DNA of 64,000 nt from an uncultured Gammaproteobacteria bacterium (GCA_964517685.1 CAZFCF010000001.1:153458-217457), one strand, 5' to 3'; shown: positions 2,545 to 61,746, counted from the first letter of the stretch. Translations and numbers: made by a program. The notes: a model not told the origin generated them from the letters alone.

Positions 2545-2623
2545 GTCATTGCGAGGAGTGAAACGACGAAGCAATCTCCTTTGCGCAGGGGGATTGCTTC
2601 ATCCCTTCGGGATTCGCAATGAC
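2545..2623. repeat. modular palindromic repeat: GTCATTGCGAGG..CGAAGCAATC + TTGCGCAGGGGGATTGCTTC..GATTCGCAATGAC
   Basis: matches the inverted modules gtcattgcgag/ctcgcaatgac seen in ~17 copies in the window. Confidence 0.85.
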
Positions 2624-2647
2624 GAGAATTAATGACAATTGAAAAGA

Positions 2648-3775
2648 TCAAAAACTAAAATCCAAGCCTAGATTTTCATCTTGTTTTTCTATTAAATAAA
2701 ATAATTTATCACCGTTATTGTTTTCTGGCTCAGTTTTTACGGCTAATGCTTTGCGCTTTGAAGTTCTCTTCGGTCCTTTTAGACCGACTTTTAATTCATT
2801 GAATTCTTTTTTTGTATTAGGAAGAGTTTTTACTTCTTCTAGTTGGATGGTTTTAGAGTTATTTTTTAAATAATAAAACCCCAGAATGAAGAGAATTGCG
2901 GAAATAAGTAACAGGCAAATTATTACTACAGTGGCTTTAGCTCTAGTATTTGGAATTTTGACCATATGGTTTTTGTTTAAAGAGTTGTTGATATTAATTA
3001 ATTTTGGAAATAATAAATTTATTGAAGAGCCTTCACCAGCAAATGTATCAATTTCAATTTTACCTTGATGGAATAACATTATACTTGATAGTCCGCTAAG
3101 CCCATGTCCATCAGCATTTTGGAAAGAAGCATTTTTTAGTTTATTAACTACCTCTTGAGGCATGGCTTTACCAAAAGAGCTAATTCTAATTTGCCAGTGG
3201 CGAGATCTATCTTTAAGTTCAATTTTAATTTCATCTTCAGTGTATTTAAGAGCATTTTCAATAAGATTAATTAGAGCTTTTGAAACTAAATTGAAATTTC
3301 CTGCTATTAAAGCATGCTCGTTTTGACTGCAATTTGAAAATTTAATGCGATTAAAGTTACTGAGCTGAAAAAGCTCTAGTTCAAGTAAGTCTTTAAGGTC
3401 TATGGTTTCTTTTTTATAGAGTAAATCAAAATTTTTATAAAAATCAAAATCTTCATTAGAGTTTTCAAAAGCAATTAGATTATTTTTTAGTTCTTCAAAT
3501 AGTGATTGAAAATGAAAGGCAGCTCCTTTCGCAAAGTTATAACTATTTTCTGTATCTTGGTTATAAATAGAGGATTTGATCAATGCAAAAAAATTTGCTG
3601 CATCATGTAAATGTGAGAGATTCAGAGCGATTAAAGAATTGATGTAGTTTTTTACTTTATTTTTTTCTTTAAGTAAATTGGCTTGCTCGTGATATTGGTT
3701 GATTAATAAAGTGAGGCCTGCTGAAAACAATGCAGTAGCAATTAATATAATTGAAATTAACACCCCGTCCCCCAT
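2648..3775 (-). CDS. membrane-anchored histidine-kinase-like ATPase (HATPase_c-like)
   Basis: N-terminal TM; ENALKYT (N-box-like), GHGLSGLS (G2-like), possible H-box LSHLHDAAN; second TM and basic tail at C-terminus. Confidence 0.5.
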   Translation of the reverse strand: MGDGVLISIILIATALFSAGLTLLINQYHEQANLLKEKNKVKNYINSLIALNLSHLHDAANFFALIKSSIYNQDTENSYNFAKGAAFHFQSLFEELKNNLIAFENSNEDFDFYKNFDLLYKKETIDLKDLLELELFQLSNFNRIKFSNCSQNEHALIAGNFNLVSKALINLIENALKYTEDEIKIELKDRSRHWQIRISSFGKAMPQEVVNKLKNASFQNADGHGLSGLSSIMLFHQGKIEIDTFAGEGSSINLLFPKLININNSLNKNHMVKIPNTRAKATVVIICLLLISAILFILGFYYLKNNSKTIQLEEVKTLPNTKKEFNELKVGLKGPKRTSKRKALAVKTEPENNNGDKLFYLIEKQDENLGLDFSF

Positions 3776-3797: not shown

Positions 3798-3834
3798 TTG
3801 CGCAGGGGGATTGCTTCACTGCGCTTGCAATGAC
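3798..3834. repeat. palindromic repeat half-unit TTGCGCAGGGGGATTGCTTC..GCAATGAC
   Basis: module shared with copies at 2582, 43413, 44169, 52172; abuts stop codon of the 3838..5085 gene. Confidence 0.8.
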
Positions 3835-3837
3835 GTT

Positions 3838-5085
3838 CTATTTCATTTTGAAAATATTTAAAGACAAAGGCAATAGAATAAAGCCAATGATGGAGATCAC
3901 TACTTCAAAGATTCCGTTATTAACATCGTTAAATTCTTGGGCTAAGAGTTTAATGAGTAAAAAAATTAAGGGTATTAAAGTCAAACTAAATAAGCATTTA
4001 GACCATTTAAAGAGGTTCTCAAAGAAGCTTTGTTTCAGGCTTGGAAACATTATAGTAAGAGCCCAGAGTGGGCTAATGATTTTGCCGAGAATGATAAAAA
4101 TGATTAAACCAATTACAAAGAAATAAACAAAAACTTGTGAAATGCTATCTATGATGCTCAGTATGAGTGCTGGCATATAGCCGATGTGGTTACTGATATT
4201 TTCCCAGCTTCTTTCTAGGCTGAAATAATCTAGTCCTAAGTCAATAAAATTAGTTTCAATAATGCTGTGTATGCCAGCTTGAATTAGTGTAATCATTTCT
4301 ATGATAATGTCTAAAATAGGTCCAAGAAAACTAATTAAAAGTAGGCATACTAGTGAGTCGTAGATAATTTGTGAGTAAGATTCATGGTGTTGTTCAGTGG
4401 GTTTTATATTTTTGAATACTCGCATTGTAGTAAATAGGGTTAGGAGTATATAAGCAATAACTTGAAAGAAATTAAATAAATCTTGGCAAACCCTTTTCTC
4501 TAGTAGGTTTTGTGTGATTAGAACTAAGTTGGAATGATCAAAGTTAAAGTAGTTTGAAAAATCACCAAAATTAGAGAGTATACCGCCAAATAAATTGCCG
4601 AGATTGAATATATCGGAATCTTCTTGATTACCACTAATAAATTTTTCAGTATTAATGTGTGAATTTAAATTAGAATTTAAAATTTCTTCAGTTGTTTTTC
4701 GGCGTTGATATTCAGGGTAACCTGCCAAAGTGTCTTTAATAGCATATTTGACTCCGTTCTTTACCTGGAAGGTGACATCGACAGCTCCAGTGCCGAGAGA
4801 AAATTTATTAAAACCAAAATTAGTTACTTGTTCCCTGACTTCACCAACAATGCTGTTATCAAATAAATCGGTGATGGTCTCTATAAAATCTGTTTCTTGA
4901 CTTGTATATTCCAAAGGAGATTTTTCTTTGTAAACATCGATTTTCTTGTTTTCCTCTTCAGGATATTGATTTTGAAAAATATTGCTTGGAATATCTAGAA
5001 TATTTAATTTAATCTGTGAGTCTTTTGCTTTAACCGCTGAAACACTGATAAATAATATGATTAAGGCTAAGTATAGTTTTTTCAT
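3838..5085 (-). CDS. T4SS VirB6/TrbL-like polytopic membrane protein
   Basis: signal peptide MKKLYLALIILFISVSAVKA, ~200-aa periplasmic region then >=6 hydrophobic helices; position downstream of VirB4 in canonical virB order. Confidence 0.4.
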   Translation of the reverse strand: MKKLYLALIILFISVSAVKAKDSQIKLNILDIPSNIFQNQYPEEENKKIDVYKEKSPLEYTSQETDFIETITDLFDNSIVGEVREQVTNFGFNKFSLGTGAVDVTFQVKNGVKYAIKDTLAGYPEYQRRKTTEEILNSNLNSHINTEKFISGNQEDSDIFNLGNLFGGILSNFGDFSNYFNFDHSNLVLITQNLLEKRVCQDLFNFFQVIAYILLTLFTTMRVFKNIKPTEQHHESYSQIIYDSLVCLLLISFLGPILDIIIEMITLIQAGIHSIIETNFIDLGLDYFSLERSWENISNHIGYMPALILSIIDSISQVFVYFFVIGLIIFIILGKIISPLWALTIMFPSLKQSFFENLFKWSKCLFSLTLIPLIFLLIKLLAQEFNDVNNGIFEVVISIIGFILLPLSLNIFKMK

Positions 5086-5633
5086 TGTTTCACCTTGAAT
5101 AGTGGTATTGCTTTAACTATCAAATCATCTTTATTAATAATCAATTCAATAGTTAAATTACGAGCTTGATACTTAGTATCACTAAATATTTCTTGACCTA
5201 GAACTATGACCTTATTTTCTTTTTCATTGAGCTCTTCTAAATAGAGATCCTCAATAGTAAAACTGCTATTCAAGTTTTGTTTTTGCCTGTTTTCAAGTTC
5301 AATGGCTAGAGTCTCACTAAAGAGGTTCATGTCGGTATGCTTCTGTATAAAATTAATCGACTCTTCAGAGGTTTTAAAGAAATTTTCTAGATATATATGA
5401 GTAAATTTTTTAATTTGCTCTGGGTTAATTGTTTTACTAGGTTCTTGATTTGATTTTACGGTCTGGGATTTTTCTTCTCTGGATATTGTTGGTATTTTTT
5501 TCTTATGCACTTCTAATAACTGAATAGTAAAAAACATATTGAGTATAAGGCTTAGACAGAGAGCTAGTTGTAGCTTCTTTACTAAGCCTGGCTGCGCCAT
5601 CCAGTCAAAGAATATAGTATTCTTCTCATCCAT
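5082..5633 (-). CDS. bitopic membrane protein, T4SS-associated (VirB5/VirB8-like position)
   Basis: 183 aa, single N-proximal TM (LALCLSLILNMFFTIQLL), overlaps neighbours by 4-8 nt (operon coupling). Confidence 0.3.
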   Translation of the reverse strand: MDEKNTIFFDWMAQPGLVKKLQLALCLSLILNMFFTIQLLEVHKKKIPTISREEKSQTVKSNQEPSKTINPEQIKKFTHIYLENFFKTSEESINFIQKHTDMNLFSETLAIELENRQKQNLNSSFTIEDLYLEELNEKENKVIVLGQEIFSDTKYQARNLTIELIINKDDLIVKAIPLFKVKQ

Positions 5634-8409
5634 GAATTAAAGTCCTTAGAAGTTCTTGGCTAGTATTTAATGCTGCTAATTTACTTGTTTGTGTTTGTTT
5701 AAAATTTTCAAAGAGCTGATTCCTTTTATTTGCAAATTCTCTGGTTGAATTAGTCAGAATATTTTCAAGTGGATTAAGACTAATATTCATAAGTCCACTA
5801 GAACGAGTGCTTTTCATAAATACAGTACCCGCGTTATTCAAGAGCCCTGAATTAATGATTTCAGATTCTTTCTCTGTTAAATTACTAAATCGTGAAATTT
5901 CAAATCTATCTTTAAATTCTTTCAATTGAAAAACAAAAGAACAAGAAGAGTTCGAATGAACTTCAGCAGGTAGGTCACAAGGTTTTTGGGAGATAGTCCA
6001 AAGCCCAAGATCTAGTCCTCTACCAGCTCTGGCGAGGTGAGTAAGTAAGTCTTTTGCGTATACTGACTTATTACTGCCAAATAATTTCCATGCTTCATCA
6101 ATAATTAAATTGGTCTTAGCTTGCTTGAAGAAAACTATTTTTTTGGAAATAAAATTAACTACTAGAAATAAACTGGCTCTAATAAAGCTCTCATCACTAG
6201 TGATTTTGGAAAAAGTGAATAGAACTAAGCGATCGTTAATTTTAAGTTCTTGACCATCAGCAAGAGCAGCATAAATACCATTACTGATATAACAATATGG
6301 AGAAATGATTTCTAACCATTCTTTGCTTAATGCTGCTGAATTAGTTTCTGTATAAGCTTTCCATAGATTGTATAAATCACTAAAACGAGGTTTAGCATAT
6401 TGTGCATAGAGCTCTTTAAGGCTCTGTATCAAGAAAGCCTTCTCACCTGTCTGTAATTCTTTATCAGGACTTTTCAGTAGTTTTAGAAAATTAATTAAAT
6501 CATCGATGTGTTGATTGAGATTGTATCTTGGACATTGAGTAAATTCAAAAGGTGCAAATAAAGACTCACCTTCATCTAAGTTGATCTTGTCTATTTCTAT
6601 AATTTTGCCACCTAGATAATTAGTGAAGAAGCTCCAACCATCTTCAGTACTATCTACTATGTAAAAAAATCTATCTTGCTCGGCAAACATCCTTAATAAG
6701 AGGATTTTGGCTAAGACGGTTTTGCCAGAACCCGAATCACCAATAAAATTAAAATTTCTATTGTGAAACTCTGAGCGATTATAGTCATCTACAAAAATTA
6801 CTTTTTGTGATTTATGATCAAAGCCTGCTATGAAACCTTCTTTCGAGCCAATTTGTGATCTTATGAAGGGGAAGCAAGCTTTAGCAAAGTCTAAACAGGC
6901 AAAGTGCATTTCCTTGTCATTTAGCTTGTTATAGGCAAAGGGTAGCGAATAGTGATAGTTTGGAACCTGTTGCCTATCTAGTCCTGAAATCTTGGAATAT
7001 TTAATTGAGCTTAAAATACTATTATCGATTTTTTGTAATTCATTTAGATCTTTACAAAAAATAGTAATGAAAATTGATATATCAAAACTTATAGCTTTCT
7101 CTAAAAGTTTCTGACTGGCAAGTTCGGTTTCTTTTATGATTGCTAAAGTGCTTTGCCTGCTGAGGTTTGAGAGTTGTTTAGAGTAGATGGATTTTTGTTC
7201 TAATTTTAATCTGTCCTTTAAAGCATTGCGGCTTAGTAACTGAATGCTAATTATGGATTTACAAGAAGTGTTTTTGATGAAATCATAAACCCAAAAATCT
7301 AAGTCACCGCTTTCTGGACTGAAAACCATTCGATAGGTTTTTGTAATGGTCGGGGAATCTTTGCTTGATTTATGCTCTATATACTTTGCTCTATCAATTA
7401 GTTTAATTTCTTCATTAGTTAAGGACTGGATCCTTACGCTTCGCTCAGGATGACGATTAGGGTCGAAGTATTCTTTACCAAGCCATTTTTCTGTGAAATT
7501 TTGTAAATCTATATGCTCTAATTGTTCTGATTGAATATTATTGTTTTGGAAAAATTCTTGGATCTTTTTGATTTTCTGTTTGAGTAAATAATTTTCCTCT
7601 ATAAGTGCTTGCTGCTCTTTTTCTAAAATTGCTTCTTTGTTTTTATTAAAATATTTATTGTAGAAAGCAAACAAAGACTTAAAAATTGGGTGAATGTTGT
7701 TTCTTTGGTTTTTTTGCCTGATAATCATATAAAAATTAGTTTCTGGAATAAATTTCTCTTCGCTTGTTTTGGCTTGAAGGTAGTCACTGTATGCTTTTTG
7801 GTAGTTTTGATAGTTAAGACAATCGCTCTGGATATCATTTAGTATTGGCATTTGGTAAGAATCTATTTCAATAAAGAGCTGAATGATATCGCCATAGTTT
7901 TTTTCTGAAAAGAAATATGATTTGATATTTTTGATTTCAGAAACAGTAGCGAGAATATTTTCCCAATTGCGTAAGAAGTTTTCTATTTCAGTTTTATCCA
8001 GGCGATTTAAAACAATTCCACTTTGGATTTTTATAATTGCTATTTGATCGTTGTCCTTGCTAAGTAAAAAATCATCATAGAGAGATTTAATATCAATTAG
8101 TTCTTTAGTGGAGATATAGCCTTGAGAGTTTTTGCCTCTAGTAAAATGATGATTTGCAAATGGGTGAAATATAAATGAGCTATAGAATCCTTTGATTTCT
8201 GGTTCCTGACTGCTTTTGATAACTAAGCTAAGAATGATCATATAGAGCGTAGCTAGGAAAATTAGTAATGGGCTATTTAGGGCTAATCTTAAGGATAGGG
8301 CGATATAGAGGAGTGATATGGAAAGAAGAAGGATCTTCAATATTGCCCAAAGATTGAGCCCTAGAAATAGCTCAGGCTCTTTTTTAATATGTCGGAAGGT
8401 TTGGATCAT
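5626..8409 (-). CDS. virB4: type IV secretion ATPase, VirB3-VirB4 fusion type (CagE/TraG-like)
   Basis: N-terminal two TM helices (VirB3-like), Walker A GDSGSGKT, Walker B/VirB4 signature IIDEAWKLF, C-terminal WTISQKP (VirB4 motif). Confidence 0.75.
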   Translation of the reverse strand: MIQTFRHIKKEPELFLGLNLWAILKILLLSISLLYIALSLRLALNSPLLIFLATLYMIILSLVIKSSQEPEIKGFYSSFIFHPFANHHFTRGKNSQGYISTKELIDIKSLYDDFLLSKDNDQIAIIKIQSGIVLNRLDKTEIENFLRNWENILATVSEIKNIKSYFFSEKNYGDIIQLFIEIDSYQMPILNDIQSDCLNYQNYQKAYSDYLQAKTSEEKFIPETNFYMIIRQKNQRNNIHPIFKSLFAFYNKYFNKNKEAILEKEQQALIEENYLLKQKIKKIQEFFQNNNIQSEQLEHIDLQNFTEKWLGKEYFDPNRHPERSVRIQSLTNEEIKLIDRAKYIEHKSSKDSPTITKTYRMVFSPESGDLDFWVYDFIKNTSCKSIISIQLLSRNALKDRLKLEQKSIYSKQLSNLSRQSTLAIIKETELASQKLLEKAISFDISIFITIFCKDLNELQKIDNSILSSIKYSKISGLDRQQVPNYHYSLPFAYNKLNDKEMHFACLDFAKACFPFIRSQIGSKEGFIAGFDHKSQKVIFVDDYNRSEFHNRNFNFIGDSGSGKTVLAKILLLRMFAEQDRFFYIVDSTEDGWSFFTNYLGGKIIEIDKINLDEGESLFAPFEFTQCPRYNLNQHIDDLINFLKLLKSPDKELQTGEKAFLIQSLKELYAQYAKPRFSDLYNLWKAYTETNSAALSKEWLEIISPYCYISNGIYAALADGQELKINDRLVLFTFSKITSDESFIRASLFLVVNFISKKIVFFKQAKTNLIIDEAWKLFGSNKSVYAKDLLTHLARAGRGLDLGLWTISQKPCDLPAEVHSNSSCSFVFQLKEFKDRFEISRFSNLTEKESEIINSGLLNNAGTVFMKSTRSSGLMNISLNPLENILTNSTREFANKRNQLFENFKQTQTSKLAALNTSQELLRTLIHG

Positions 8410-9514: not shown

Positions 9515-10648
9515 TTACGCTTTAGCTTCTTTATTCAAAAACAAATCCAAAATAGTAAAACGATTTTTACGTGTTTGTGGTGCTAGTTCAATAATTTTTT
9601 TGAGCTCAGTTGCATCTATGCCTATATCTGCAAACTTAGTGGGGAAGCCTAGTTCACTAAGTAGCTTGAATAGAATTGAGTTGTACTCAAGCTTTTCAAA
9701 ATCAACTTTATCTAAACTTAAATCAAAATCATGTGCTTGAGAAAAAATACTTTTGATCAAATCATAGCCTCTGAGACTTTCTAGAAAAAGTGTTGCCACT
9801 AAAACTTGAATGCCGTGTGATGCCTTCTTGCCATGTCCATAAATTTCATCGATGGCATGAGAGATCATGTGTTCGGCTCCAGAACAAGGTCTTGAGTTGC
9901 CACTTATACTCATAGCGATTCCTGAAACTGCAAGTGCTTCAATTAATGATCTAAGAAAAAATTCTTCATGAATAAAATCTTCAGACCAATTTGCTTTTTG
10001 ATTTTTAAGTTTAACTTGTGTTTCCAAAATTGATATAACCGTCATGGCAGACTGTTTTGAGAGCATTGCAGCAAAGCTATCAATCTCTTCACCTTTGTAT
10101 TTATTTGCAAGTTTCCAATCTTCTATTGCAGATAAATTAGCAATCAAATCACCGACACCAGATTGAATTTGTGCAGTGCTGGCATCTTTGATAATGAATA
10201 AAGGTACTAGCAAAGCATAGGGCATCACTGCTCCGTAGCTTTTGCCATTTAAGACTGCTACAGGTGAGCAGATACCATCATGTGAAATTAAAGTCGGTAC
10301 GCTGATAAATTTTGAATTAGTTTTAGCTGCTAAATATTTTACTTGATCGAGTACCTTGCCGCCACCAACTGCTAAAAGCCAATTGTTATCGAGCTTCTGG
10401 CTTAATTCACTTTCGTGCAGTAGAGCTTGCTCGTCGATTATTTGATAATTTATTTTGCAATTTTTAATCTGCGTAGAAGTCTCTAAATCTTTTGCTAGTT
10501 GATTAGCAAGAATAAAGCTTGCATAAGTGCCTGCGAAAATATAAAGTTTAGTAATTGCATTCTCTGTGATTAAATCTTCAATCACAGTTAACAAAGCAGC
10601 ATAGTCATCTGCAATTTTTAGTTCTTTTGGTATTGTAATTTGACGCAT
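9515..10648 (-). CDS. sn-glycerol-1-phosphate dehydrogenase / glycerol dehydrogenase-like Fe-ADH (EgsA/AraM family)
   Basis: AVGGGKVLDQVKYLAAK (GGGxxxDxxK NAD motif), SVPTLISHDGICSP (metal/substrate motif as in G1PDH TASNDGIASP). Confidence 0.6.
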   Translation of the reverse strand: MRQITIPKELKIADDYAALLTVIEDLITENAITKLYIFAGTYASFILANQLAKDLETSTQIKNCKINYQIIDEQALLHESELSQKLDNNWLLAVGGGKVLDQVKYLAAKTNSKFISVPTLISHDGICSPVAVLNGKSYGAVMPYALLVPLFIIKDASTAQIQSGVGDLIANLSAIEDWKLANKYKGEEIDSFAAMLSKQSAMTVISILETQVKLKNQKANWSEDFIHEEFFLRSLIEALAVSGIAMSISGNSRPCSGAEHMISHAIDEIYGHGKKASHGIQVLVATLFLESLRGYDLIKSIFSQAHDFDLSLDKVDFEKLEYNSILFKLLSELGFPTKFADIGIDATELKKIIELAPQTRKNRFTILDLFLNKEAKA

Positions 10649-11406
10649 TCTAAATCTTTTGCTTTTTGGTAATCTTCTTTAGTATCAATTTCAGTCCAAC
10701 CAAAACCTTCTGTAGAAACTGCTTTTAGTTTAAGCTCGCTTGTAATTCTATCAAGAGCATCTTCGTAATATTTATCATAGATACCATTAGCTATCATATT
10801 TTCAAGAGAAGCTTTGAACTTGGAAGCATCATTGTTACTAAGTCTTAAAATCCCAATGTACTCACCAAAAGATTTTTGATTATCAAGTTGTTTGTGAATT
10901 CGTATAATGTTTTTTTGTTCGTTGAGTAAAACTTTCATATCTTCGTCAACCAATGCCTCACTATTATCCACGATCATAAAGCTCTCTTTATTTGCCTTTA
11001 GAGCATCGACACTAATTGCTAGAATGCGCTCGTCATAGACAATATCAGAATTAAATATCAAAGTATTTTCATCTATAAGATCTCGAATTAAATAAGCTGT
11101 GTAAATATTGTTTCTATCTTTATAGTAGTCATTAAAGATTGAACGTATCTGCAAAGGTTTATAGTAATCTGGATTGCCACGCCCGCCTGCTCCTCGCAAT
11201 GACGATTTTTTAATGACGGCAGCTATCTCATCTGCCGCATGTCCGGTGACAATGATGATCTCTGTAAAATCATATTGACTCATTAACTTGAGATTTCTTT
11301 CAAGAATAGTTTCAGATTCATTTATAGGTAAACAGCACTTTGGTAAATCTTTTGTAAGATCACCTAACCTAGTTGCCATGCCTGCTGCAAAGATAATTCC
11401 GCGCAT
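10618..11406 (-). CDS. LicC-family cytidylyltransferase (CTP:phospho-alcohol/phosphonate cytidylyltransferase-like)
   Basis: MRGIIFAAGMATRLG (GxGTRL), IRSIFNDYYKDRNNIYTAYLIRDLI closely parallels S. pneumoniae LicC VRLVFNDKYADYNNFYSLYLV; overlaps G1PDH-like gene by 31 nt; contains in-frame repeat insertion. Confidence 0.65.
   Translation of the reverse strand: MRGIIFAAGMATRLGDLTKDLPKCCLPINESETILERNLKLMSQYDFTEIIIVTGHAADEIAAVIKKSSLRGAGGRGNPDYYKPLQIRSIFNDYYKDRNNIYTAYLIRDLIDENTLIFNSDIVYDERILAISVDALKANKESFMIVDNSEALVDEDMKVLLNEQKNIIRIHKQLDNQKSFGEYIGILRLSNNDASKFKASLENMIANGIYDKYYEDALDRITSELKLKAVSTEGFGWTEIDTKEDYQKAKDLECVKLQYQKN
11171..11203. repeat. palindromic repeat unit (GGATTGCCACG..CTCCTCGCAATGAC) inserted in-frame in LicC-like CDS
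   Basis: encodes KKSSLRGAGGRGNP on minus strand, a segment absent from LicC homologues. Confidence 0.75.
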
Positions 11407-28122: not shown

Positions 28123-28124
28123 AT

Positions 28125-53761: not shown

Positions 53762-54122
53762 GCAAGTAGTTCAGGCAATCGCTTTTCCGTAAGGAGGAGA
53801 GGAAAGTCCGGGCACCGCTAGAGCTTAGGTTGCTGGTTAATTGCCAGTGCGCGTGAGCGTGAGGACAGTGCCACAGAAAGATACCGCCAAGAAATTGGTA
53901 AGGGTGCAAAGGTGAGGTAAGAGCTCACCAGCAAGATCGAGAGGTCTTGGCTCGGTAAACCCCACTGAAGGTGCAAGGTAAAGGTATTTAAGTTTAGGAT
54001 TAAAGCTGCTCGCTTCCCTAGATTTACCTGAATTCCGCTAGAGGCTAAGAGTAATCTTGGTCCCAGATAGATGATTGTTCATGATGCAAATCATTACAGA
54101 ACCCGGCTTATAGGCTACTTGC
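53762..54122 (+). ncRNA. rnpB: RNase P RNA, bacterial type A
   Basis: GAGGAAAGTCCGGGC (P4 5'), GGTAAGGGTGCAAAGGTGAGGTAAGAGCTCACC (P10/11/12), ACAGAACCCGGCTTA (P4 3'); P1 gcaagtag/ctacttgc. Confidence 0.9.
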
Positions 54123-54173
54123 AATTTTTATCAAAATACTATTTGAGCAAGCTTTGTAAGCAATGAGGTTTAT

Positions 54174-54869
54174 ATGGTAAACACTTGCTCAGTAACTGGA
54201 ACTCTTAGAATAGGGAACGTCATCGATCCTAAGGAAAAATTTCAAAGAGATTTTAAATTATCTATTTCGCAAGCTTGGAAGGCTGGTGTTACAGCAGACG
54301 TCAAGCCTTTAATGGAACTTCTCTCTAATAATTCTAATCATGTAACAGATGCAAATCTAGATACTTTAGCAAATCTTTTTAAAAGACTTACACCAGAGCA
54401 AGGAATTGAAATTGCTACTTCTAAATATATACAAGACGCACTAGCTAGCTTTGATAGTGGTGATCAAGGAATTACATCACTTTCTATGGCTCTTGAATCT
54501 ATGAAGTCACATACATTAGGTGATGAAAAGGCTTTTGATGGGATAACTAAAGTGATTCATGATATAGATGTACAAAAATTACAAAGTGAGATATCAGCAG
54601 CTCCTAATACTAAGTCAGAAATTAATAAAAAAAGAGATTCTATTGCATATATCATTAATGTTGCTTTGCAAAAAATACCTGAATTTGACGATAAACTTAA
54701 TGAACTTATATCTACGGAGATCGTAGCTACGGAATTACCAAAGCAGGGAATGCATCCAAGTATGGCTGTATTTTACGCTATGAGAGAATTAGCTGATGTT
54801 AGATTTAATACTGATAAATTAAAATGGCATCTTTTTTTATTTGCTAATAGAAATTCAATAGCTGCTTAA
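54174..54869 (+). CDS. hypothetical protein
   Basis: 231-aa ORF between rnpB and the first rnpB-3' direct repeat. Confidence 0.4.
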   Translation: MVNTCSVTGTLRIGNVIDPKEKFQRDFKLSISQAWKAGVTADVKPLMELLSNNSNHVTDANLDTLANLFKRLTPEQGIEIATSKYIQDALASFDSGDQGITSLSMALESMKSHTLGDEKAFDGITKVIHDIDVQKLQSEISAAPNTKSEINKKRDSIAYIINVALQKIPEFDDKLNELISTEIVATELPKQGMHPSMAVFYAMRELADVRFNTDKLKWHLFLFANRNSIAA

Positions 54870-54874
54870 AATCG

Positions 54875-54938
54875 TCATCCTGAGGGTAAAGAAAGCAAGT
54901 GCCGTCATTGCGAGCCCTCGAAGAGGGCGTGGCAATCC
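54875..54938. repeat. palindromic repeat (GTCATCCTGAGG..GTCATTGCGAGCCCTCGAAGAGGGCGTGGCAATCC)
   Basis: module composition as above. Confidence 0.85.
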
Positions 54939-55051
54939 ATCTTAGGGAAGTTTTGATAAAGCTGCTTTATCTTTAAAACCAATAGCTAATTTTGACTCTC
55001 ATACAGTACTTTTATATTTAGATGATTTGGGAATAAAAAAATAGTATTCAA

Positions 55052-55178: not shown

Positions 55179-57824
55179 GTGTCTTTTTTAGAACAATTAT
55201 CAAGATTTTCTATTTTAACGCGACCCACTTCAAAATTAGGCAAAGTTTTAAAAGAAGTTCATCCTTATTCATCATCTGATAAAAATAGCTACGATGAGAT
55301 TTTAAGAAGATTAGGTCCTGTATTTGATAGTTTAGACAAACTTTTTCAAAGGACTAGGAATGGATATGATGACAAAGAAATTATTGAATTATCAGCTAAA
55401 TATACATTTTTAAAAGAAAAATTAAATACGAAGAAAACACCTTTACCAGAGAAAAACAAATATCTTCTAGAATTCAAAAACCTGATTCATGGAACTAATA
55501 TATTGAATCAATTCTATGATTTACTTCAATCTGAAAAAGTACAAGCATTTAATATTAATCGACAACGTCATCCTACAATTCAACTCTTTTTTGATGGATT
55601 AAACTTTAAAGGAAAAAATTTACAGAATATTGTTTTTAGGAATGCAAAAATTATAGATTCTAATCTTTGTGAAATTGATTTAACAGATTCAGATTGTATT
55701 GAAACTGTATTTTCAAAATCAGCTCTATATAAATTAAATTTTACTGAATCTCAATTAAATTCAGCTACCTTTACGAAAGTAAATGGTTCCAATATTAACT
55801 TCACCGATTCAAATTTACCTAAAGCTAAATTTGAAAATTGTGAACTTTTTAAAGCTAATTTTTGTGGAGCAAATCTTAGTAATGTTGAAATAAAAGATTC
55901 TTCGCTTTATGAAGCAAACTTTAGTAAGGCAGACCTGAGTCAAGCTCAAATAAATAAATTAAAATCTCATAATTCAAATTTTGAAAGAGCAATTTTCAAG
56001 AATACCAATCTCTCTAACTCTTTTTTATTTGATGCAAATTTTAAAAATGCAGAATTAACATCAACTGAATTTAATAATGTTGATTTAACTGGTGCTGATT
56101 TTAGTGGAGCCAAACTTTTGAAAGTTAATTTCTATCACTGTAATCTCACGGGTGCAAATTTTAGGAACTGTGATCTTTACCGTATAACAAATCAACAGCT
56201 TGATCAAATTATAAATCCCCTATCTGTTCGTAATGTTAATTTTCAGGAGGGAATTAAATGGTTATTTAAAAATATTGATTCTAAAGAACTAAGTAATATT
56301 ACTACTCATAAAATAATTAGATTTTTAAATATAGACTCTAATTTAGTAAGCCGTATTGATCCAACATTGCTAAGTAAAATTAATACTATTAACCCAAAAG
56401 AATTTATTGCAAGATTATTTTTGATTTATGAAATAAATATTTTAATCGAGAGAGTTTACAGAGAAAATCATAAAACTTTGGATCAACTCTGCAGAGTTTT
56501 ATATAATTCATGTGGAAATAATCTTGATGATTTAATACTTGAAGGCAAGCTCTTAAGTAATCATCTTAGTTCAGGCAATGAAAGTATTTTAAGAGACTCT
56601 TTGGAATTGGTTTTTGATACTTTTGTTTTACCAAGATTAGAAAAGTTTTTAGATACAGCTGCAATTAAAAAGTTAAAGCAATGGCAAGTATCAAGCTTTA
56701 AAGAAAAATTAATGCCATATTTTATGATTGCAATTTCTCAAAATAGATTTTTTGATCCATCTTCTGATTATTCTAAGTTAAAAGGAGAAGTAGCTTCACT
56801 ACCAAAGAGTGCAAATTATAAAATGCCGTCATTGTTACTTAATCTATCAAGGGGCATTCATCATCCTGTTATAGCTTATGATACAGCCGTAAGACATATA
56901 CTTCCTGAAGGCTCTTGGTATCCCATTTTAATTTCTGCAAATAATCAAGTTGAAATAACTTTGCCAAATACTGATAAAAAGTATTTAGTTAGAAATTTGA
57001 TCAATTACAAAGATTTTGATTACGAAACTTTTGTATTAGGTCATTGTATCGGTCGAGGTGTATTTTACGTTAACAAAGCAAAAGAAGGAGGACATCATTA
57101 TTTTTCTATTAGAGAAGCAGAAACTGGTATACCAATATCTACGGTGGAATTTGCTCTAAATGAGCGCTTACAATTACAAAAAATGCAACATAAAGGAAAA
57201 AATAATTTGCCACCAAGTGATGCTGCCAAAAAGATATTGGAAATATTTTTACGAGGTGTTAAAGACGGTACTTATCCTCTATCTTTAAAACAAACTGGTA
57301 AAGATTCCAGTGTTGAAAAATTATCTGTTTTTGAGAATGCAGTTGGTACTTTTTGTGATGATGATACTGAAGTCACAAAGAATCGTAGAATATTTGATAC
57401 AACTAATGTACACTCAGTTCAAGTAAGAGCTTGGATTAAATTAGCGCAACCTAAAAATGGCTATTTAATAAATCGACTACAAAATGGCGAAACTTATAAA
57501 TTGAATCCTGGTATTGGTACCACTAATAATTTAGGCGAAACAATTCAACTTGGTGGCTATAGAGCTAAGCCAGAAGGTATTCCTTATGATAACTATTTTA
57601 TACCTAACTCCTGTAGAGGGGATCTTAGTTTAGAATCTATTAATCCAAGAAAAGTGAATGATAAACGTTTGAGATTTTCACAATTTTCTGGAAATGATTT
57701 GGCTGAGATTGACAAAGGTATAGAAAGATTTTTTAATACCAAAGTTACAGATCAAATGAGTTTTGATGATCTAATAAAATCTACTATTATAGAAGTTGTG
57801 CAAACAGAAGAACCTCCTCTTTAA
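55179..57824 (+). CDS. pentapeptide-repeat protein, paralogue 1 (881 aa)
   Basis: A(D/N)LxxA(N/D)F repeats over residues ~150-340; conserved N-domain and ~540-aa C-domain shared with paralogue 2; GTG start. Confidence 0.7.
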   Translation: MSFLEQLSRFSILTRPTSKLGKVLKEVHPYSSSDKNSYDEILRRLGPVFDSLDKLFQRTRNGYDDKEIIELSAKYTFLKEKLNTKKTPLPEKNKYLLEFKNLIHGTNILNQFYDLLQSEKVQAFNINRQRHPTIQLFFDGLNFKGKNLQNIVFRNAKIIDSNLCEIDLTDSDCIETVFSKSALYKLNFTESQLNSATFTKVNGSNINFTDSNLPKAKFENCELFKANFCGANLSNVEIKDSSLYEANFSKADLSQAQINKLKSHNSNFERAIFKNTNLSNSFLFDANFKNAELTSTEFNNVDLTGADFSGAKLLKVNFYHCNLTGANFRNCDLYRITNQQLDQIINPLSVRNVNFQEGIKWLFKNIDSKELSNITTHKIIRFLNIDSNLVSRIDPTLLSKINTINPKEFIARLFLIYEINILIERVYRENHKTLDQLCRVLYNSCGNNLDDLILEGKLLSNHLSSGNESILRDSLELVFDTFVLPRLEKFLDTAAIKKLKQWQVSSFKEKLMPYFMIAISQNRFFDPSSDYSKLKGEVASLPKSANYKMPSLLLNLSRGIHHPVIAYDTAVRHILPEGSWYPILISANNQVEITLPNTDKKYLVRNLINYKDFDYETFVLGHCIGRGVFYVNKAKEGGHHYFSIREAETGIPISTVEFALNERLQLQKMQHKGKNNLPPSDAAKKILEIFLRGVKDGTYPLSLKQTGKDSSVEKLSVFENAVGTFCDDDTEVTKNRRIFDTTNVHSVQVRAWIKLAQPKNGYLINRLQNGETYKLNPGIGTTNNLGETIQLGGYRAKPEGIPYDNYFIPNSCRGDLSLESINPRKVNDKRLRFSQFSGNDLAEIDKGIERFFNTKVTDQMSFDDLIKSTIIEVVQTEEPPL

Positions 57825-58059: not shown

Positions 58060-60849
58060 GTGGCGTTTTTAGAACGATTAGCTAATTTTTCTACTTTAAC
58101 TCAGCCTTCTACAAGGCTTGGAAAAATTCTTGCCGGAATTCATCCCTATTTGATACTTAAGAAAAAAAATGATTATAATGACATATTAAGAAAATTACAA
58201 CCCGTCTTTAATAGCTTGGATAGGCTTTTTCAAATAGGGCAAAGAAATTCTGATAATAAAGAGATTAGAGAATTATCATTAGAATATAGATCTTTAGGAC
58301 AACAATTACAATCTACGAAAGCAACTTTAGAACAAAAAAAGAATTATCTTTTAGAGTTCAAAAAATTAGTTTATAAAACTAATAGACTGAATCAATTTCA
58401 TGATTTACTTCAATCTGAGAATGTAAGAGTATTTAACGCTAACAGACAACTATATCCTACAATTCAAACTCTTTTTCATGGGTTAAACCTTAAAAGAAAA
58501 AATTTACAAAATATCGATTTTAGAAATACGAATATTGCGCAATCAAGTCTTTCTGAAATTGATTTAACAGATTCAGATTGTATAGGAATTAAATTTTCGG
58601 ATCTAGCTTTATATAAATTAAATTTCACGAATGCCCAATTAGATTCAGCTAGCTTTACAGAAGTAAAAGGTTCTAATATTGATTTCACTAATTCTCATTT
58701 ACCTGAAGCTAAATTCGAAAATTGTAAGCTCTTAAAAGCAAATTTTCATGAAGCAGATCTCAGTGAGGTCATAATAAAGAATTCCTCTTTCCAGGAAGCA
58801 GATTTTAGTGATGCAGAACTGATATCAACTAAGTTTAGAGACGTTGATTTAACTGGTGTTGATTTTAGTGGAACCAAACTTTTTAAAGTTGATTTCTTTG
58901 GAAGCAATCTTATGGGTGCAAATTTTAAAAATGCAGAATTAATGTCAACTGAGTTTGGAAGCGTTGATTTAACTGGTGCTGACTTTAAAGGAGCCAAGCT
59001 TTCTAACGCTGATTTTGATAGCAGCAATCTTATGGGTGCAGATTTTAGTAATTGTAATCTTCGCAATGTAAAAATCACAAGTCGGCAGCTTGAGCAGATT
59101 ATAAATCCTCTCTCTGCTAATAATGTTAATTTCAGGGAAGGAATCAAATGGTTATTTAAAAATATTGACTCTAAAGAATTAAGTAATCTTAGAGTTCATC
59201 AAGTAATTAGATTTTTAGATATTGACTTTTCTTTGATAAATAGTATTGATCCATCATTGCAAAGCAAAATTAATACAATTGATCCTAGAGAATTAATTGC
59301 AAGATTATATTTGATTTCTGAGACAGACATTTTTAGCAAGCATGTTTGCGCAGAAAATCATCAAGCTCGGAATCAACTCTGTAGAGTTTTATATAATTCA
59401 TGTGGAAATAATCTTGAGGATTTAATACATGAAGGTAAATTAGTTAATAGTGATCTTCGCTCAAATAATGCCAGTGATTTTAAAGACTCTTTGAACCTAG
59501 TTTTTGATACTTTTGTTTTACCAAGATTAGAAAAGTTTTTAGATACAACTGCAACTAAGGAGTTAAAGCAATGGCAGTTATCAAAATTTAGAGAAAAACT
59601 AATTCCATATTTGGTTATTGCAATTTCTCAAAATAGATTTTTTGATCCAAGCTCTGATTATTCTAAGCTAAAGGGGAAAGTAGCTTCACTACCTAAAAAT
59701 GCAAACTATAAAATGCCATCATTATTACTCAATATATCAAAAGGTATTCACAACCCTGTTGTCGCTTATGCTACAGCAGTAAGGCATATTAGTCCTGAAG
59801 GCTCATGGCATCCTATTTTAAATTCTGTGGCTAATCAAGTTGAAATCACTTTACCTAATAGTAATAGAAGATACTTAGTTAAAAATTTGATCAATTACAA
59901 AGATTTTGATTATGAATCTTCTGCATTAGGTCATTGCATCGGTCAAGGTGTACGTTACGTTAACAAAGCAAAGGGAGGTAAATACCATTATTTTTCTATA
60001 AGAGAAGCAGAAACGGGCAAGCCAGTATCTACCGTGGAGTTTGCTTTAGGACATGATGGTAGTCCTAGGGGTCCTTTTGAAGATCGTGATATTAGAGCCA
60101 GAAATAGTACTTCAATAGACAATCATTCTGATTATTTTTTACAACAAATCCAGCATAGAGGAAAAAGAAATTCGATACCAACTGCAGATGCCAAAGAGAT
60201 CCTGAAGATATTTTTACAAGGTGTCAAAGACGGTACTTATCCTATATCCTTAAAACCAATTGGTAAAGATTCTAGTACTGAAAAATTATCTGCTTTTGAA
60301 AATACTATTGGTACTTCTTTTGATGATACCGAAGTTATAAATAATCGTAAAATGTTTGATACAACTAATGTACATTCTATTCAAGCAAGAGCTTGGATTA
60401 AATTAGCGCAACCTAAAGACAGCCATTTAGAAAATCGACTACAGGATGGTGAAATTCAAGAATTAAACCCAGGTATTGGTGTCATTGACGAGGAAACTGG
60501 CGAAACAATTCAGCTTGGTGGCTATAGAGCCAAGCCAGAAGGTATTCCTTATGATAACTATTTTATACCTAACTCCTGTAGAGGAGATCTTAGTTTAGAA
60601 TCTATTAATCCAAGAAAAGTGAATGATAAACGTTTGAGATTTTCACAATTTTCTGGAAATGATTTGGCTGAGATTGACAAAGGTATAGAAAGATTTTTTA
60701 ATACCAAAGTTACAGATCAAATGAGTTTTGATGATCTAATAAAATCTACTATAGAAACTGTGCAAAAAGAAGAACTTCCGAAAAGAGATCTTGCGCACGG
60801 AGATCTTTTGATGATGGAGTTGGCTGCAATTATTGGGGATAATCAATAA
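58060..60849 (+). CDS. pentapeptide-repeat protein, paralogue 2 (929 aa, longer repeat tract)
   Basis: ~60% identity to paralogue 1 in N-domain, near-identical in last ~100 aa; extra pentapeptide units. Confidence 0.7.
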   Translation: MAFLERLANFSTLTQPSTRLGKILAGIHPYLILKKKNDYNDILRKLQPVFNSLDRLFQIGQRNSDNKEIRELSLEYRSLGQQLQSTKATLEQKKNYLLEFKKLVYKTNRLNQFHDLLQSENVRVFNANRQLYPTIQTLFHGLNLKRKNLQNIDFRNTNIAQSSLSEIDLTDSDCIGIKFSDLALYKLNFTNAQLDSASFTEVKGSNIDFTNSHLPEAKFENCKLLKANFHEADLSEVIIKNSSFQEADFSDAELISTKFRDVDLTGVDFSGTKLFKVDFFGSNLMGANFKNAELMSTEFGSVDLTGADFKGAKLSNADFDSSNLMGADFSNCNLRNVKITSRQLEQIINPLSANNVNFREGIKWLFKNIDSKELSNLRVHQVIRFLDIDFSLINSIDPSLQSKINTIDPRELIARLYLISETDIFSKHVCAENHQARNQLCRVLYNSCGNNLEDLIHEGKLVNSDLRSNNASDFKDSLNLVFDTFVLPRLEKFLDTTATKELKQWQLSKFREKLIPYLVIAISQNRFFDPSSDYSKLKGKVASLPKNANYKMPSLLLNISKGIHNPVVAYATAVRHISPEGSWHPILNSVANQVEITLPNSNRRYLVKNLINYKDFDYESSALGHCIGQGVRYVNKAKGGKYHYFSIREAETGKPVSTVEFALGHDGSPRGPFEDRDIRARNSTSIDNHSDYFLQQIQHRGKRNSIPTADAKEILKIFLQGVKDGTYPISLKPIGKDSSTEKLSAFENTIGTSFDDTEVINNRKMFDTTNVHSIQARAWIKLAQPKDSHLENRLQDGEIQELNPGIGVIDEETGETIQLGGYRAKPEGIPYDNYFIPNSCRGDLSLESINPRKVNDKRLRFSQFSGNDLAEIDKGIERFFNTKVTDQMSFDDLIKSTIETVQKEELPKRDLAHGDLLMMELAAIIGDNQ

Positions 60850-61712
60850 GTATTTTTACTTTCCGGCTCAGTAAACAATTTACTAGTCCCAATATGGGTC
60901 AATCTGCCATCGGCAGAGTCTTGAATTAATAAGGCAGTCTCAGTATCTCTGATACCGCCAGCAGCTTTGATAGAAATATTTCTCTTTGGATCATATTTGT
61001 TTAGTAGCTTTGCAATTAAGGAAATCAAGTTAGGTGAACTTGTTTTCAAAACCACTCCTGATTCCTCTTTGCTGCCTATATAACCAGTTGAGTTTTTATA
61101 AGCAAATTTTATTCTAGCTACTACATCAGGGTTACTTTCATAAAATCTTGCAACAACATCACTAAATATTTTTGCAGTTCTTTCAATTTCTTCGTCATTT
61201 AAAATTTCACAAGAAAAAATTGGTTTCATCCAAAATTTTTCTTCCGGGCGCTCTAATGAGAATTTATATAAGGTTTCAATTAAGCCTTGCAATTCTTTTT
61301 GTAAATTATCAAGATCACTAATTTTCATTACTGGATCAAGTTCTATAGCGCCGTCTCCAAGAGCATTAGCGGCTTCTACCTTCTTAGCTTCAAGGCTAAA
61401 ATTTCCTATTGAGGATTTTATTTTTTCTAAATTGTTAGCATCAGTTATTTCATATTTATTTTCAAGGAAACCAATTACGGCTGAAAGTCTGTAGTGTTGA
61501 TTTAGATTCATCAATTCTTTTACTTTAGATGGACGTATACATGCAGAATGTAAATCTTTATCTAAAACTGTATCTGCTAGAGTTTTTAGTTCTGCCAAAC
61601 TAGCGCTAGGATTTAAATTTGTTAAATCGATTAAATTATCAACTGTGCTTTCCATAATATCTATTAGTAACTGGATTGCCACGCCCATTCCATGGGCTCG
61701 CAATGACGGCAC
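60843..61712 (-). CDS. deoC: deoxyribose-phosphate aldolase
   Basis: C-terminal IKAAGGIRDTETALL..RLTHIGTSKLF matches DeoC KASGGIRT..RIGTS; N-terminal 20 aa (MPSLRAHGMGVAIQ) are repeat-encoded, real start probably MESTVDNL. Confidence 0.65.
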   Translation of the reverse strand: MPSLRAHGMGVAIQLLIDIMESTVDNLIDLTNLNPSASLAELKTLADTVLDKDLHSACIRPSKVKELMNLNQHYRLSAVIGFLENKYEITDANNLEKIKSSIGNFSLEAKKVEAANALGDGAIELDPVMKISDLDNLQKELQGLIETLYKFSLERPEEKFWMKPIFSCEILNDEEIERTAKIFSDVVARFYESNPDVVARIKFAYKNSTGYIGSKEESGVVLKTSSPNLISLIAKLLNKYDPKRNISIKAAGGIRDTETALLIQDSADGRLTHIGTSKLFTEPESKNTY

Positions 61713-61746
61713 CTGTTCTTAACTTGCACCCATACAGCAATGACGC
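61673..61746. repeat. palindromic repeat (GGATTGCCACG..GGGCTCGCAATGACGG..CAGCAATGACGC)
   Basis: module composition as above. Confidence 0.8.

Follow-up and report, generated by a model that had tools for sequence, protein, structure and literature searches.

Among bacterial non-coding repeats, short tagged palindromes belong to the most frequent. One class of them, the CGTC-tagged superfamily of repetitive extragenic palindromes (REPs) with its families CGTC-1 to -4, is described by Di Nocera, De Gregorio and Rocco (2013, BMC Genomics 14:522; PMC3733652), whose text defines it by a CGTC or TGTC tag, AT-first stems, CCA tails and a predominance of HH dimers. According to the same text, copies lie near stop codons and also within genes, the class extends over five phyla, and no dedicated transposase goes with it. 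CGTC-1 is equated there with the Neisseria repeat dRS3, and CGTC-1 and CGTC-4 with the R. conorii palindromic elements (Rickettsia palindromic elements, RPEs) RPE-6 and RPE-4; variation in copy number among genomes was argued to speak against a general host function. The class thus includes the protein-invading RPE-4 and RPE-6 as well as dRS3, and since its definition in 2013 no mobiliser has been named for it. The present analysis concerns a repeat that is abundant in a 64,000-nucleotide stretch of DNA deposited as an uncultured Gammaproteobacteria bacterium (GCA_964517685.1 CAZFCF010000001.1:153458-217457), called the window below, where a hairpin unit of 27-39 nt with a (C/T)GTC tag occurs 26 times.

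The unit has a constant anatomy, its fold is constrained, it is present in the window and absent from the same sites in some relatives, it is widely distributed, and no transposase lies beside it. The units are probably REP-type DNA hairpins, mobile, non-coding and non-autonomous, and members of the CGTC-tagged superfamily. A preliminary description of this DNA had presented the module sequences as distinct; its claim to novelty is weakened, the kind having been described already as the CGTC-tagged REP, a match of the sort which the description had itself allowed for.

Anatomy and folding of the unit

The central observation of the preliminary description, an abundant family of modular palindromes, is real. 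The module GTCATTGCGAGG, with at most one mismatch, matches 18 times in the window against 0.06 expected, GGATTGCTTCG 10 times against 0.77 and GTCATCCTGAGG 9 times against 0.09, and none of 100 shuffles was as high in any of the three cases. A covariance model built from 11 window units and run without filters found 26 full units at 19 loci in the 64 kb (E<0.01), to which seven truncated copies, or "orphan heads", are added. The repeat clusters are 33-134 nt long and total ~1.3 kb, which is 2% of the window; the GC content of the units is 50-65%, that of the window ~33%. All 18 start positions listed earlier fall on a repeat or a few nt from one, and one further locus, 7425-7457 (-), had been overlooked.

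From 5' to 3' the unit consists of an unpaired (C/T)GTC tag, an outer stem, an internal loop, an inner hairpin and an unpaired CCA(G) tail, its two ends reading GTCATTGC ... GCAATCC. C or T precedes GTC in 11/11 aligned window units, 132/137 GTDB units and 154/169 viral units, and all window units start GTCAT, which is ATGAC on the opposite strand. The outer stem of 5 bp opens with A-T and T-A. It reads ATTGC/GCAAT or is one of the covarying versions, which in the window include ATCGT/ACGAT, ATTCT/AGAAT and ATCGC/GCGAT. Its first pairs, alignment columns 7/89 (A-U) and 8/88 (U-A), are invariant in 147/147 units, the search pattern having fixed them in the seed copies only. The small conserved internal loop places GAG opposite CGTG or CGAA; a G faces G or A, the CGTG version contains an A-T pair, and a single G bulges out. 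Of the window units, 7/11 have a CCA tail. In GTDB units the base after CC is A in 87/137, and viral contigs favour a CCGT tail.

The inner hairpin is hypervariable in sequence and length, and its usual cap is a C-GNA-G triloop. It takes two forms, one a perfect stem of free sequence (CCATCGAAGATGG, CCCTCGAAGAGGG, CCGCGAAGCGG), the other GAGCGAAGCGAC, in which tandem G.A/A.G mismatches, bordered by G-C pairs, surround a GCGAAGC core. Of the inner part, the 27-nt units retain GCGAAGC alone. Such variability makes the inner hairpin a natural barcode for tracing copy lineages. The modules, described earlier as an independent vocabulary, turn out to be the 5' arm, 3' arm, inner hairpin and dimer spacer of this one unit; TTGCGCAGGGGGATTGCTTC is the dimer spacer plus the 3' arm, and GCCCTCGAAGAGGGC is one variant of the inner hairpin.

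Covariation was analyzed in 147 distinct units from 100 GTDB loci aligned to the model, a set in which the inner stem was unconstrained by the search pattern. Paired cells amounted to 83.8%, compared with 72.9% in shuffles. Double-sided changes were found in 122 cells where 29.3 were expected, a number reached by 0 of 500 shuffles, and controls with a slid 3' partner gave 14-33 double-changed cells. The hairpin structure is under selection. Inner stems accept any sequence, from GC-only through AAAATTTTTAATTTT, with CCAGTGCGCACACTGG as a further example. The loop is 3 nt long in 107 of 164 units, mainly GAA, GCA, GTA or GGA, the loop-closing pair is C-G in 121 of the 164, and tandem G.A/A.G pairs are present in the GAGCGAAGCGAC class. 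The C-GNA-G loop, as in d(GCGAAGC), makes the unusually stable DNA mini-hairpin of Hirao and co-workers, and tandem sheared G.A pairs are a hallmark of very stable DNA hairpins. Because both motifs mark stable DNA hairpins, a single-stranded DNA form of the unit is favoured.

Units occur singly, as tail-to-tail inverted dimers, or with orphan heads. Among adjacent pairs in the GTDB loci, 76 of 94 are tail-to-tail, with spacers mostly of 10-30 nt. When covariance hits and unit sequences are combined the window has seven such dimers, at 2542, 20904, 25856, 30817, 33506 and 46936 and as a pair in the 43413 cluster; a stricter strict-stem unit finder recovers only 4 of the 7. Folded as DNA, a dimer prefers a four-way cloverleaf (z = -5.1 for 20904-21005 and -4.6 for 2542-2626), in which 5' arm pairs with 5' arm (GTCATTGCGAG/CTCGCAATGAC), the 3' arms and the spacer pair together, and both inner hairpins are kept. 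An orphan head consists of the tag, the 5' arm and 10-20 nt, without a 3' arm. Three are on the (+) strand (30798-30819, 46910-46938, 54874-54903) and four on the (-) strand (28172-28183, 43514-43525, 43534-43545, 44222-44233). All seven accompany a full unit of like orientation and lie on its tag side, the two starts being 20-30 nt apart. Replacement or excision may have left them as footprints, or they may be insertions that failed.

Gene context, distribution and turnover

The preliminary description placed copies at almost every gene boundary and often within a few nt of a stop codon. The first statement was too broad, and the accompanying figure of hundreds of copies per genome is an extrapolation. 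Repeats are found at 14 of ~48 boundaries of open reading frames (ORFs), these being the 14 intergenic loci of the 19, and the other 5 loci are inside long ORFs. The distance of 0-5 nt from a stop applies to ~8-9 of the 19 loci; counted to 0-11 nt, again ~8-9 lie near a stop or supply the stop themselves, as in the genes for seryl-tRNA synthetase (SerRS) and MazG, in ORF 46013-46960 and in the histidine kinase gene. Three loci are between divergent gene starts (20904-21005, 43413-43546, 52168-52205). The five in-frame inserts, which occur in both orientations, encode RHPERSVRIQ, SSLRGAGGRGNP, GAGGLLRFARNDGGDDSAPQDDG, RHCEERSDVAIQ and GIATPSSMARND. The idea that units are open in all reading frames was discarded, since some are stopped in every frame and the 72% of unit-frames that are open is about what chance gives for GC-rich 33-mers. 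In annotation the units cause false N- or C-terminal extensions and spurious small ORFs, with typical peptides LRFARNDG, RHCEERSD and SLRG.

This placement raises the question of whether the units act primarily as RNA, that is, as 3'-end or intercistronic mRNA structures for exonuclease protection, RNase processing, pausing or attenuation, with spread being secondary. Many copies are indeed 2-11 nt past a stop or overlap one, the structure is kept by covariation, and single units are sense to the adjacent or host gene in 8 cases and antisense in 3. It is also general knowledge, repeated in PMC3733652, that E. coli REPs stabilise upstream mRNA. However, a terminator-like T tract accompanies only 1 of ~22 units in the 20-60 kb region, a dimer puts both orientations into one transcript, 3 loci are between divergent starts, and 5 are in coding sequence in both orientations. 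Further, the GNA triloops and tandem G.A pairs are motifs favoured in DNA, no unit stands at the same gene ends in close relatives, and no Rfam family matches: at gathering thresholds only RNase P and tRNA were found, and a permissive search returned only sub-threshold miRNA-like hairpins. A primary function in RNA is considered improbable. The narrower candidate, an intrinsic terminator, was rejected; only the unit at 28130-28147 passes a terminator scan among the ~22 units of 20-60 kb.

The repeat extends far beyond the window. The module sequences had been called distinct, but the exact pattern GTCATTGCGAG-N6-22-CGWRGCAATCC is found in at least 120 stretches of GTDB genomes and at least 120 IMG/VR contigs, as well as on plasmids of cultured genera. 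Hosts among the matches listed include Alpha-, Beta-, Gamma- and Deltaproteobacteria, Helicobacter and Rickettsiales; Chloroflexi, Buchananbacteria and Paceibacterota (candidate-phyla-radiation), Bacteroidota, Oscillospiraceae and Melainabacteria; and Planctomycetota, Armatimonadota, Gemmatimonadota, Spirochaetes and Verrucomicrobia. The plasmids belong to Methylosinus (36/36 identity, in M. trichosporium OB3b), Methylocystis, Novosphingobium, Legionella, Calothrix, Aulosira and Halomonas, and the unit is unannotated in all of them. Eighty SerRS loci (840 kb) from metagenome contigs unselected for units, the best SerRS match being 58% identical and so too distant for comparing empty sites, served as a control. 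Units were present in 1 of the 80 loci, at 0.0024 per kb against 0.41 per kb in the window, which is ~170 times rarer. One exact sequence family thus recurs across phyla and phage contigs irrespective of host GC, and a conserved recognition partner is therefore indicated.

Such a partner could in principle be a DNA-binding protein of the host, be it gyrase, IHF or a nucleoid protein, the units being chromosome-architecture sites maintained by selection and not spread as selfish DNA, a role put forward for E. coli REP/BIME. In primary sequence the arms are constant from hosts of 33% GC to GC-rich Bradyrhizobium, which points to a sequence-specific binding partner. Yet relatives at ~80% identity have no units, unselected genomes have almost none, and copy number varies enormously between genomes. 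An architectural role is highly improbable.

In some IMG/VR contigs 3-5 units, with a CCGT tail, follow one another head to tail at a period of 42 or 54 nt (L027 2670-2860 and 5030-5104; L007 11382-11520). These arrays are intergenic, beside a gene start, with gaps of 10-23 nt, and the arrangement is absent from the window. Two other IMG/VR contigs carry, within phage structural ORFs (L043 7921-9504, and L020), palindromic stretches that resemble related units of other types; examples are ...VIASPSPSVILSPSPPVILTLNEVKGKDL...GIATSPRFSGASRNDRV in a portal-like protein of L043 and the peptides VILSEAKD and PVHPEPVEGS in L020. They suggest that phage genes, too, may be invaded in frame.

Two window proteins have their best named homologues in Candidatus Melainabacteria, Caenarcaniphilales and Vampirovibrionia, and the presence of LpxC, LptF/G and DUF561 fits a Gram-negative cyanobacterial relative; the host is accordingly read as a non-photosynthetic cyanobacterium. 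Three contigs of relatives with 79-82% protein identity, L245 (6.4 kb), L246 (12 kb) and L247 (11.9 kb), 30 kb in all, are syntenic with the window across MazG-OTC-ThyX...radical SAM-SpoU. None of the three has a unit, even with the model filters off. Direct alignment of filled with empty sites was possible at the MazG end, where OTC meets ThyX, inside the radical SAM gene and upstream of it, in front of SpoU, and at the start and the end of the histidine kinase gene. Within the radical SAM family, P0003, P0007, P0008, P0010 and P0011 have nothing inserted in the loop that follows MPK(Y/F), P0002 (82% identity) has one unit there and the window protein two; family members P0004, P0005, P0009 and P0012 have other, independent units, some in the opposite orientation or in a second loop.

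Copies at unlinked sites of the window can be nearly or fully identical. The same 27-mer unit is found at 44177-44203 and 52176-52202, and again in contig L248. The variable hairpin of the unit at 20907 is 1 nt apart from that at 51683, and the inner hairpin GCCCTCGAAGAGGGC is common to the units at 31837, 33509 and 54904. At fixed sites there is turnover, position 46260 and the OTC 3' end holding different unit variants in close relatives. Because the relatives' sites are empty and unlinked loci share identical variable hairpins, the repeat family appears to have spread recently by copying. Comparison of these sequences shows copying to unlinked sites, apparent recent gain specific to the lineage, repeated targeting of the same sites, and tolerance in protein loops. 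Short-read contigs of the same or close strains start or end inside units (L001 and L242 at both ends, L244 at its 3' end); the family fragments short-read assemblies of these genomes. The unit-free relatives come from samples SRR29476917 and SRR17828886, the unit-bearing ones from SRR22372563, SRR13608702 and ERZ27314170.

IS200/IS605 elements insert beside a fixed pentanucleotide that then flanks every copy. The empty junctions here recall it. Of ~5 aligned, two have an exact ATGAC, which in L244 lies upstream of the radical SAM gene and in L245 where the histidine kinase gene starts, and a third has TGTC. As an insertion target, ATGAC/TGTC at 3 of ~5 junctions is a weak lead, and it could equally be an excision footprint.

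No candidate mobiliser accompanies the units. A Pfam scan of the ~48 window ORFs (64 kb of host genome) found no transposase, RAYT, IS110 enzyme, integrase or Y1 transposase. Near 240 unit-bearing loci no mobilising gene emerged from ORF clustering, which gave only phage structural genes and ABC transporters, and a regular expression for the RAYT HUH/Y motif had 0 matches at these loci.

One pair of genes in the window may hint at a different use of the units. An Rnl2-family RNA ligase gene (31895-32911) and a Pol-beta-type minimal nucleotidyltransferase gene (33128-33505), together 31895-33505, are enclosed by ~57-nt direct repeats, in both of which a unit is joined to a 21-nt extension (ATTTACTATAGAGCTTYTGGT). 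The pair is absent from L246 and L247, in which OTC directly abuts ThyX with nothing between. L248 (90% nt identity) is arranged differently around a dimer, in the order OTC, dimer, a 49%-identical nucleotidyltransferase, Rnl2, and in L250 an Rnl2 homologue adjoins a Phage_integrase gene. The units might on this evidence be recombination or attachment sites, a site-specific recombinase recognising folded units or cloverleaf dimers and cassettes or phages integrating there, as in the case of dRS3 and Nf prophages or of attC. The folding of the dimer as a four-way junction and the resemblance of conserved ends around a variable middle to attC would agree with this, as would the equation of Neisseria CGTC-1 with dRS3 in the text of PMC3733652. 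But the cassette is a single example, and plain homologous recombination between two units gives the same picture; the case is explained by it. The simple reading as a circular permutation of the cassette fails and was ruled out, the two nucleotidyltransferases being only 49% identical. Moreover, the window has no integrase and no attC core sites, and most units flank nothing variable. It is doubtful that attachment is what the units are for.

Mobile, non-autonomous DNA hairpins remain the preferred reading, and a mechanism can be proposed by analogy with REP/RAYT and IS200/IS605. The unit would fold as single-stranded DNA and be recognised by an enzyme encoded elsewhere and acting in trans. 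The conserved tag, arms and tail would form the recognition surface, the inner hairpin acting only as a structural spacer. Copies reaching new sites would survive where they are harmless: just past stops, in intergenic DNA, or in tolerant protein loops that they enter in frame. Resident units may in turn be hot spots for further insertion, replacement and recombination, and the family would have undergone a recent burst in the window's Melainabacteria/Vampirovibrionia lineage. There may also be a preference for ATGAC beside the insertion point.

Several points weigh against this reading. First, mobility rests on comparative evidence only, and the sequences surveyed yielded no mobilising enzyme. 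Second, selection at the RNA level would predict the same covariation, and G-U pairs are too rare to discriminate. Third, the pattern of presence and absence could in part reflect loss in the relatives rather than gain in the window lineage. Fourth, short-read contigs of relatives may under-represent repeats, since assemblies break there; yet the empty sites were aligned directly. Fifth, at ~80% divergence no target-site duplication or clean insertion boundary can be defined. Finally, CGTC-1 to -4 are published with a continuous 8-9-bp stem and a 4-5-nt loop, in place of the 5-bp outer stem, internal loop, 2-9-bp inner stem and mostly 3-nt loop seen here, a separation drawn from the paper's text description and not from its consensus figure.

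A more far-reaching version seems unlikely, though it deserves mention. The tag, arms and tail would be the substrate of one folded-single-stranded-DNA enzyme that is active in many phyla and in phages and inserts beside ATGAC, and dimers, as four-way cloverleaves, would double as cassette-integration or replacement sites. Candidates for the enzyme would be an HUH/Y1-like nuclease, a junction-specific recombinase, or a housekeeping replication or repair protein. If this were true, the contrast between a lineage with 0.41 units per kb and its unit-free sisters at ~80% identity would be a natural one for finding the mobilising enzyme, and would answer what mobilises CGTC REPs and RPE-4/-6/-7, a question left open by Di Nocera et al.

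The window represents a burst lineage, with 1 unit per 2.5 kb and unit-free relatives, and so offers dated insertions, empty sites and a contrast in gene content. The value of the finding is that it makes the mobilisation of CGTC REPs and RPEs approachable; its headline novelty is modest.

Individual loci and other features of the window

The inverted dimers are found in varied settings. At 2542-2626, a unit (+) at 2542-2580, the palindromic spacer CCTTTGCGCAGGGG and a unit (-) at 2588-2626 are intergenic, 23 nt from the stop of ORF 2648-3775 (-), and the DNA folds as a branched hairpin (z as given above). The dimer at 20904-21005 has a (+) unit at 20904-20944 and a (-) unit at 20965-21005 with the outer stem ATCGC/GCGAT; it separates the divergent GAPDH and HisZ-like genes, and its four-way cloverleaf has a folding energy of -29.3 kcal/mol. 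At 25856-25935, a (+) unit with ATTCT/AGAAT (25856-25894) is followed by a short (-) unit (25903-25935) that provides the last 5 codons and the stop of SerRS. The cluster at 30798-30909, consisting of an orphan head (+) at 30798-30819, a (+) unit at 30817-30857 and a (-) unit at 30871-30909, replaces the C-terminus of MazG, and its site is empty in L245. Similarly, at 46909-47019 a head (+) from 46910, a (+) unit at 46936-46974 and a (-) unit at 46981-47019 give the C-terminus and stop of ORF 46013-46960, 7 nt before SpoU; this site is empty in L245 and L247.

Two of the loci flank the RNA ligase and nucleotidyltransferase genes. The left copy of the ~57-nt direct repeat, 31834-31893 (+), is a unit of the ATTCC type with the inner hairpin GCCCTCGAAGAGGGC and the 21-nt extension ATTTACTATAGAGCTTCTGGT. 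The right copy (33509-33565) is the left half and spacer of an inverted dimer at 33506-33609, whose units are (+) 33506-33546 and (-) 33567-33609; the dimer lies 3 nt past ORF 33128-33505 and 11 nt from the ThyX stop. Between the two genes are two tandem pairs of unrelated hairpins (32910-32967, 32985-33078), the first being AGAAAGTACC...GGTACTTT, twice, and the second AACTTACTACAAAT...ATTTGTAGTAAG, twice, with perfect arms of 12-15 bp. The hairpin pairs within 32910-33078 look like operators or terminators.

Units with dimer remnants or orphan heads make up a second group. The half dimer at 3798-3837 (-), 2 nt away from the stop of ORF 3838-5085 (-), joins the spacer remnant TTGCGCAGGGG to a short unit of 27 nt (-) at 3805-3837. 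At 28122-28184 (-), a unit (28122-28160), the only terminator-like one, lies 2 nt past the stop of ORF 27355-28122 (+) and is accompanied by a head (28172-28183). The cluster at 43413-43546 (-) has a spacer remnant, units at 43420-43452 and 43464-43502 and heads at 43514-43525 and 43534-43545; it lies between divergent genes, and the L244 site is empty but for GATGAC. A unit (44174-44206) and a head (44222-44233) at 44169-44234 (-) together add 23 aa in frame (GAGGLLRFARNDGGDDSAPQDDG) to the product of the radical SAM gene 43568-44524, at a site that is empty in L242 and has one unit in L244. At 52168-52205 (-), a spacer remnant and a short unit (52173-52205), whose 27-nt unit equals that at 44177-44203, abut the start codon of the histidine kinase gene 52198-53178, and this site is empty in L245. 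The best match to the model, at 61.3 bits, is at 54874-54941 (+), where a head (54874-54885) and a unit (54901-54941) with the same GCCCTCGAAGAGGGC hairpin as at 31837 and 33509 lie 4 nt past the stop of ORF 54174-54869.

The remaining loci are single units. The locus overlooked earlier, 7425-7457 (-), is a short unit of the ATCCT/AGGAT type (model E = 8e-6), in frame in the 927-aa ORF 5626-8409, where it encodes RHPERSVRIQ. The unit at 11168-11206 (-) is in frame in the NTP_transferase ORF 10618-11406 (peptide SSLRGAGGRGNP), and that at 46257-46295 (+) in ORF 46013-46960 (peptide RHCEERSDVAIQ), a site holding different unit variants in L242 and L244 and none in L245 and L247. The unit at 51680-51720 (+) is antisense, in frame in ORF 50951-52057 (-) (peptide GIATPSSMARND); its inner hairpin is 1 nt off that at 20907, and it is also present in the same-strain contig L001. 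A long unit with the outer stem ATCGT/ACGAT, 53166-53210 (+), gives the stop of the histidine kinase gene. The last, 61670-61710 (-), is at the 5' end of the mechanical ORF 60843-61712 (-), whose true start codon is probably downstream of the unit.

The window has other repeats and genes that stand apart from the family. A perfect 29-nt inverted repeat (19550-19578 / 19745-19773) encloses 166 nt. An 82-nt repeat (14237-14318 / 19609-19690, 76% identical) has its second copy inside these 166 nt and its first beside tRNA-Met. This 82-nt/29-nt element is a different repeat or a putative small RNA. Two tandem paralogues of ~900 aa (55179-57824, 58060-60849) have pentapeptide repeats and a PcfJ-like domain. 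Most of their segments are 70-84% identical; 57534-57787 and 60499-60752 are 99% identical, and the downstream 130 nt are 94% identical, which suggests a recent gene conversion between the two. RNase P RNA of bacterial class A is encoded at 53763-54125 (+) (246 bits) and tRNA-Met(CAT) at 14524-14600 (-). Directly after the radical SAM gene are an AbiEii-type toxin gene (44525-45298) and its upstream 205-aa partner (together 44525-45908), syntenic in L242 and absent in L247. A YafQ/ParE-type toxin is at 23076-23378.

Comparison with described repeats

Described palindromes of several kinds share features with the unit. The GTAG REPs and REPINs, which are mobilised by RAYT (TnpA-REP) transposases, resemble it in being short tagged hairpins whose inverted doublets are likely to be what is replicated, with an extragenic preference, lineage-specific bursts and a presumed single-stranded DNA substrate. 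In contrast to them, the tag here is (C/T)GTC and not GTAG, and there is no RAYT in the window or near the 240 loci. Sharing of one primary sequence across phyla, as seen here, is unusual for them. The integron attC site is alike in its conserved paired ends, unpaired or extrahelical bases and palindromic centre of variable length, and it functions as a folded single strand. As an identification, attC was rejected: the GTTRRRY/RYYYAAC core sites are missing, the units are 33 nt long as opposed to 57-141 nt, and the window has no intI and no cassette array. A CRISPR array was also rejected, the window units being dispersed and mainly in inverted pairs and head-to-tail arrays occurring only in some IMG/VR contigs.

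Two comparisons with Neisseria are to be distinguished. The Correia element, to which the preliminary description had likened the repeat, is the wrong one; neither terminal inverted repeats nor a target duplication were seen. An identity as a Correia element or other miniature inverted-repeat transposable element was rejected, the filled/empty comparisons being without duplication and the hairpins having 27-39 nt as against elements of 100-400 bp with terminal inverted repeats. The dRS3/NIME repeats come closer. dRS3 is used as a prophage attachment site. It differs in being a plain ATTCCC-N8-GGGAAT hairpin that occurs for the most part in large arrays together with RS elements, whereas the dimers and single units of the window are dispersed. 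In the text of PMC3733652 dRS3 is classed as CGTC-1. Like the units, dRS3 is tied to variable gene content and rearrangement.

The likeness to Rickettsia RPEs, offered earlier as an analogy, goes deeper, as the units have the CGTC/ATGAC tag, an AT-first stem, a CCA tail and in-frame copies in genes. RPE-4 and RPE-6, along with RPE-7, share with the window family the in-frame insertion into genes, the ATGAC (= GTCAT) signature and a dimer length of 80-100 nt. Orthologous Rickettsia sites are described by Matsutani (2013) as carrying different RPE groups, an exchange of variants that also occurs at window position 46260 and the OTC 3' end. RPE-4 and RPE-6 appear to differ from the unit in that their peptides, VIPWLDHGI and SFLRKQES in the supplementary file of PMC3733652, imply ATTCC...GGAAT stems and other interiors; in the window the ATTCC type is present only at 31837 and 33509. 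The window host is not a Rickettsia, yet the window family is also found in the metagenome-assembled Rickettsiales genomes L153 and L180.

The closest agreement is with the CGTC-tagged REPs as Di Nocera et al. describe them in their text. Common to both are the (C/T)GTC tag, the A-T/T-A start of the stem, the CCA tail, the predominance of inverted and rarity of direct dimers, copies near stops, in-frame intragenic copies and the lack of an associated transposase. The hosts overlap in Bradyrhizobium, Rhodopseudomonas, Novosphingobium and other sphingomonads, Micavibrio, Rickettsiales and Neisseriaceae; Melainabacteria and most phyla matched here are not among the hosts which that text names. 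Literature searches with the unit sequence strings gave unrelated primer matches only, and the window DNA modules and typical unit peptides do not occur in the supplements of Di Nocera 2013 or Matsutani 2013. Additional file 3 of PMC3733652 lists the peptides VIPWLDHGI for CGTC-4, SFLRKQES and VIPAKAGI for CGTC-1, and VIAGLDPAIH for CGTC-3. Back-translation of the last gives CGTC-ATTGCCGGG-CTTGA-CCCGGCAAT-CCA, by which CGTC-3 appears to share the tag, the ATTGC...GCAAT outer stem and the tail with the window unit, the window interior being different and bipartite. The repeat is a further family of the CGTC-tagged REPs, or possibly one already figured, in a host group not previously reported.

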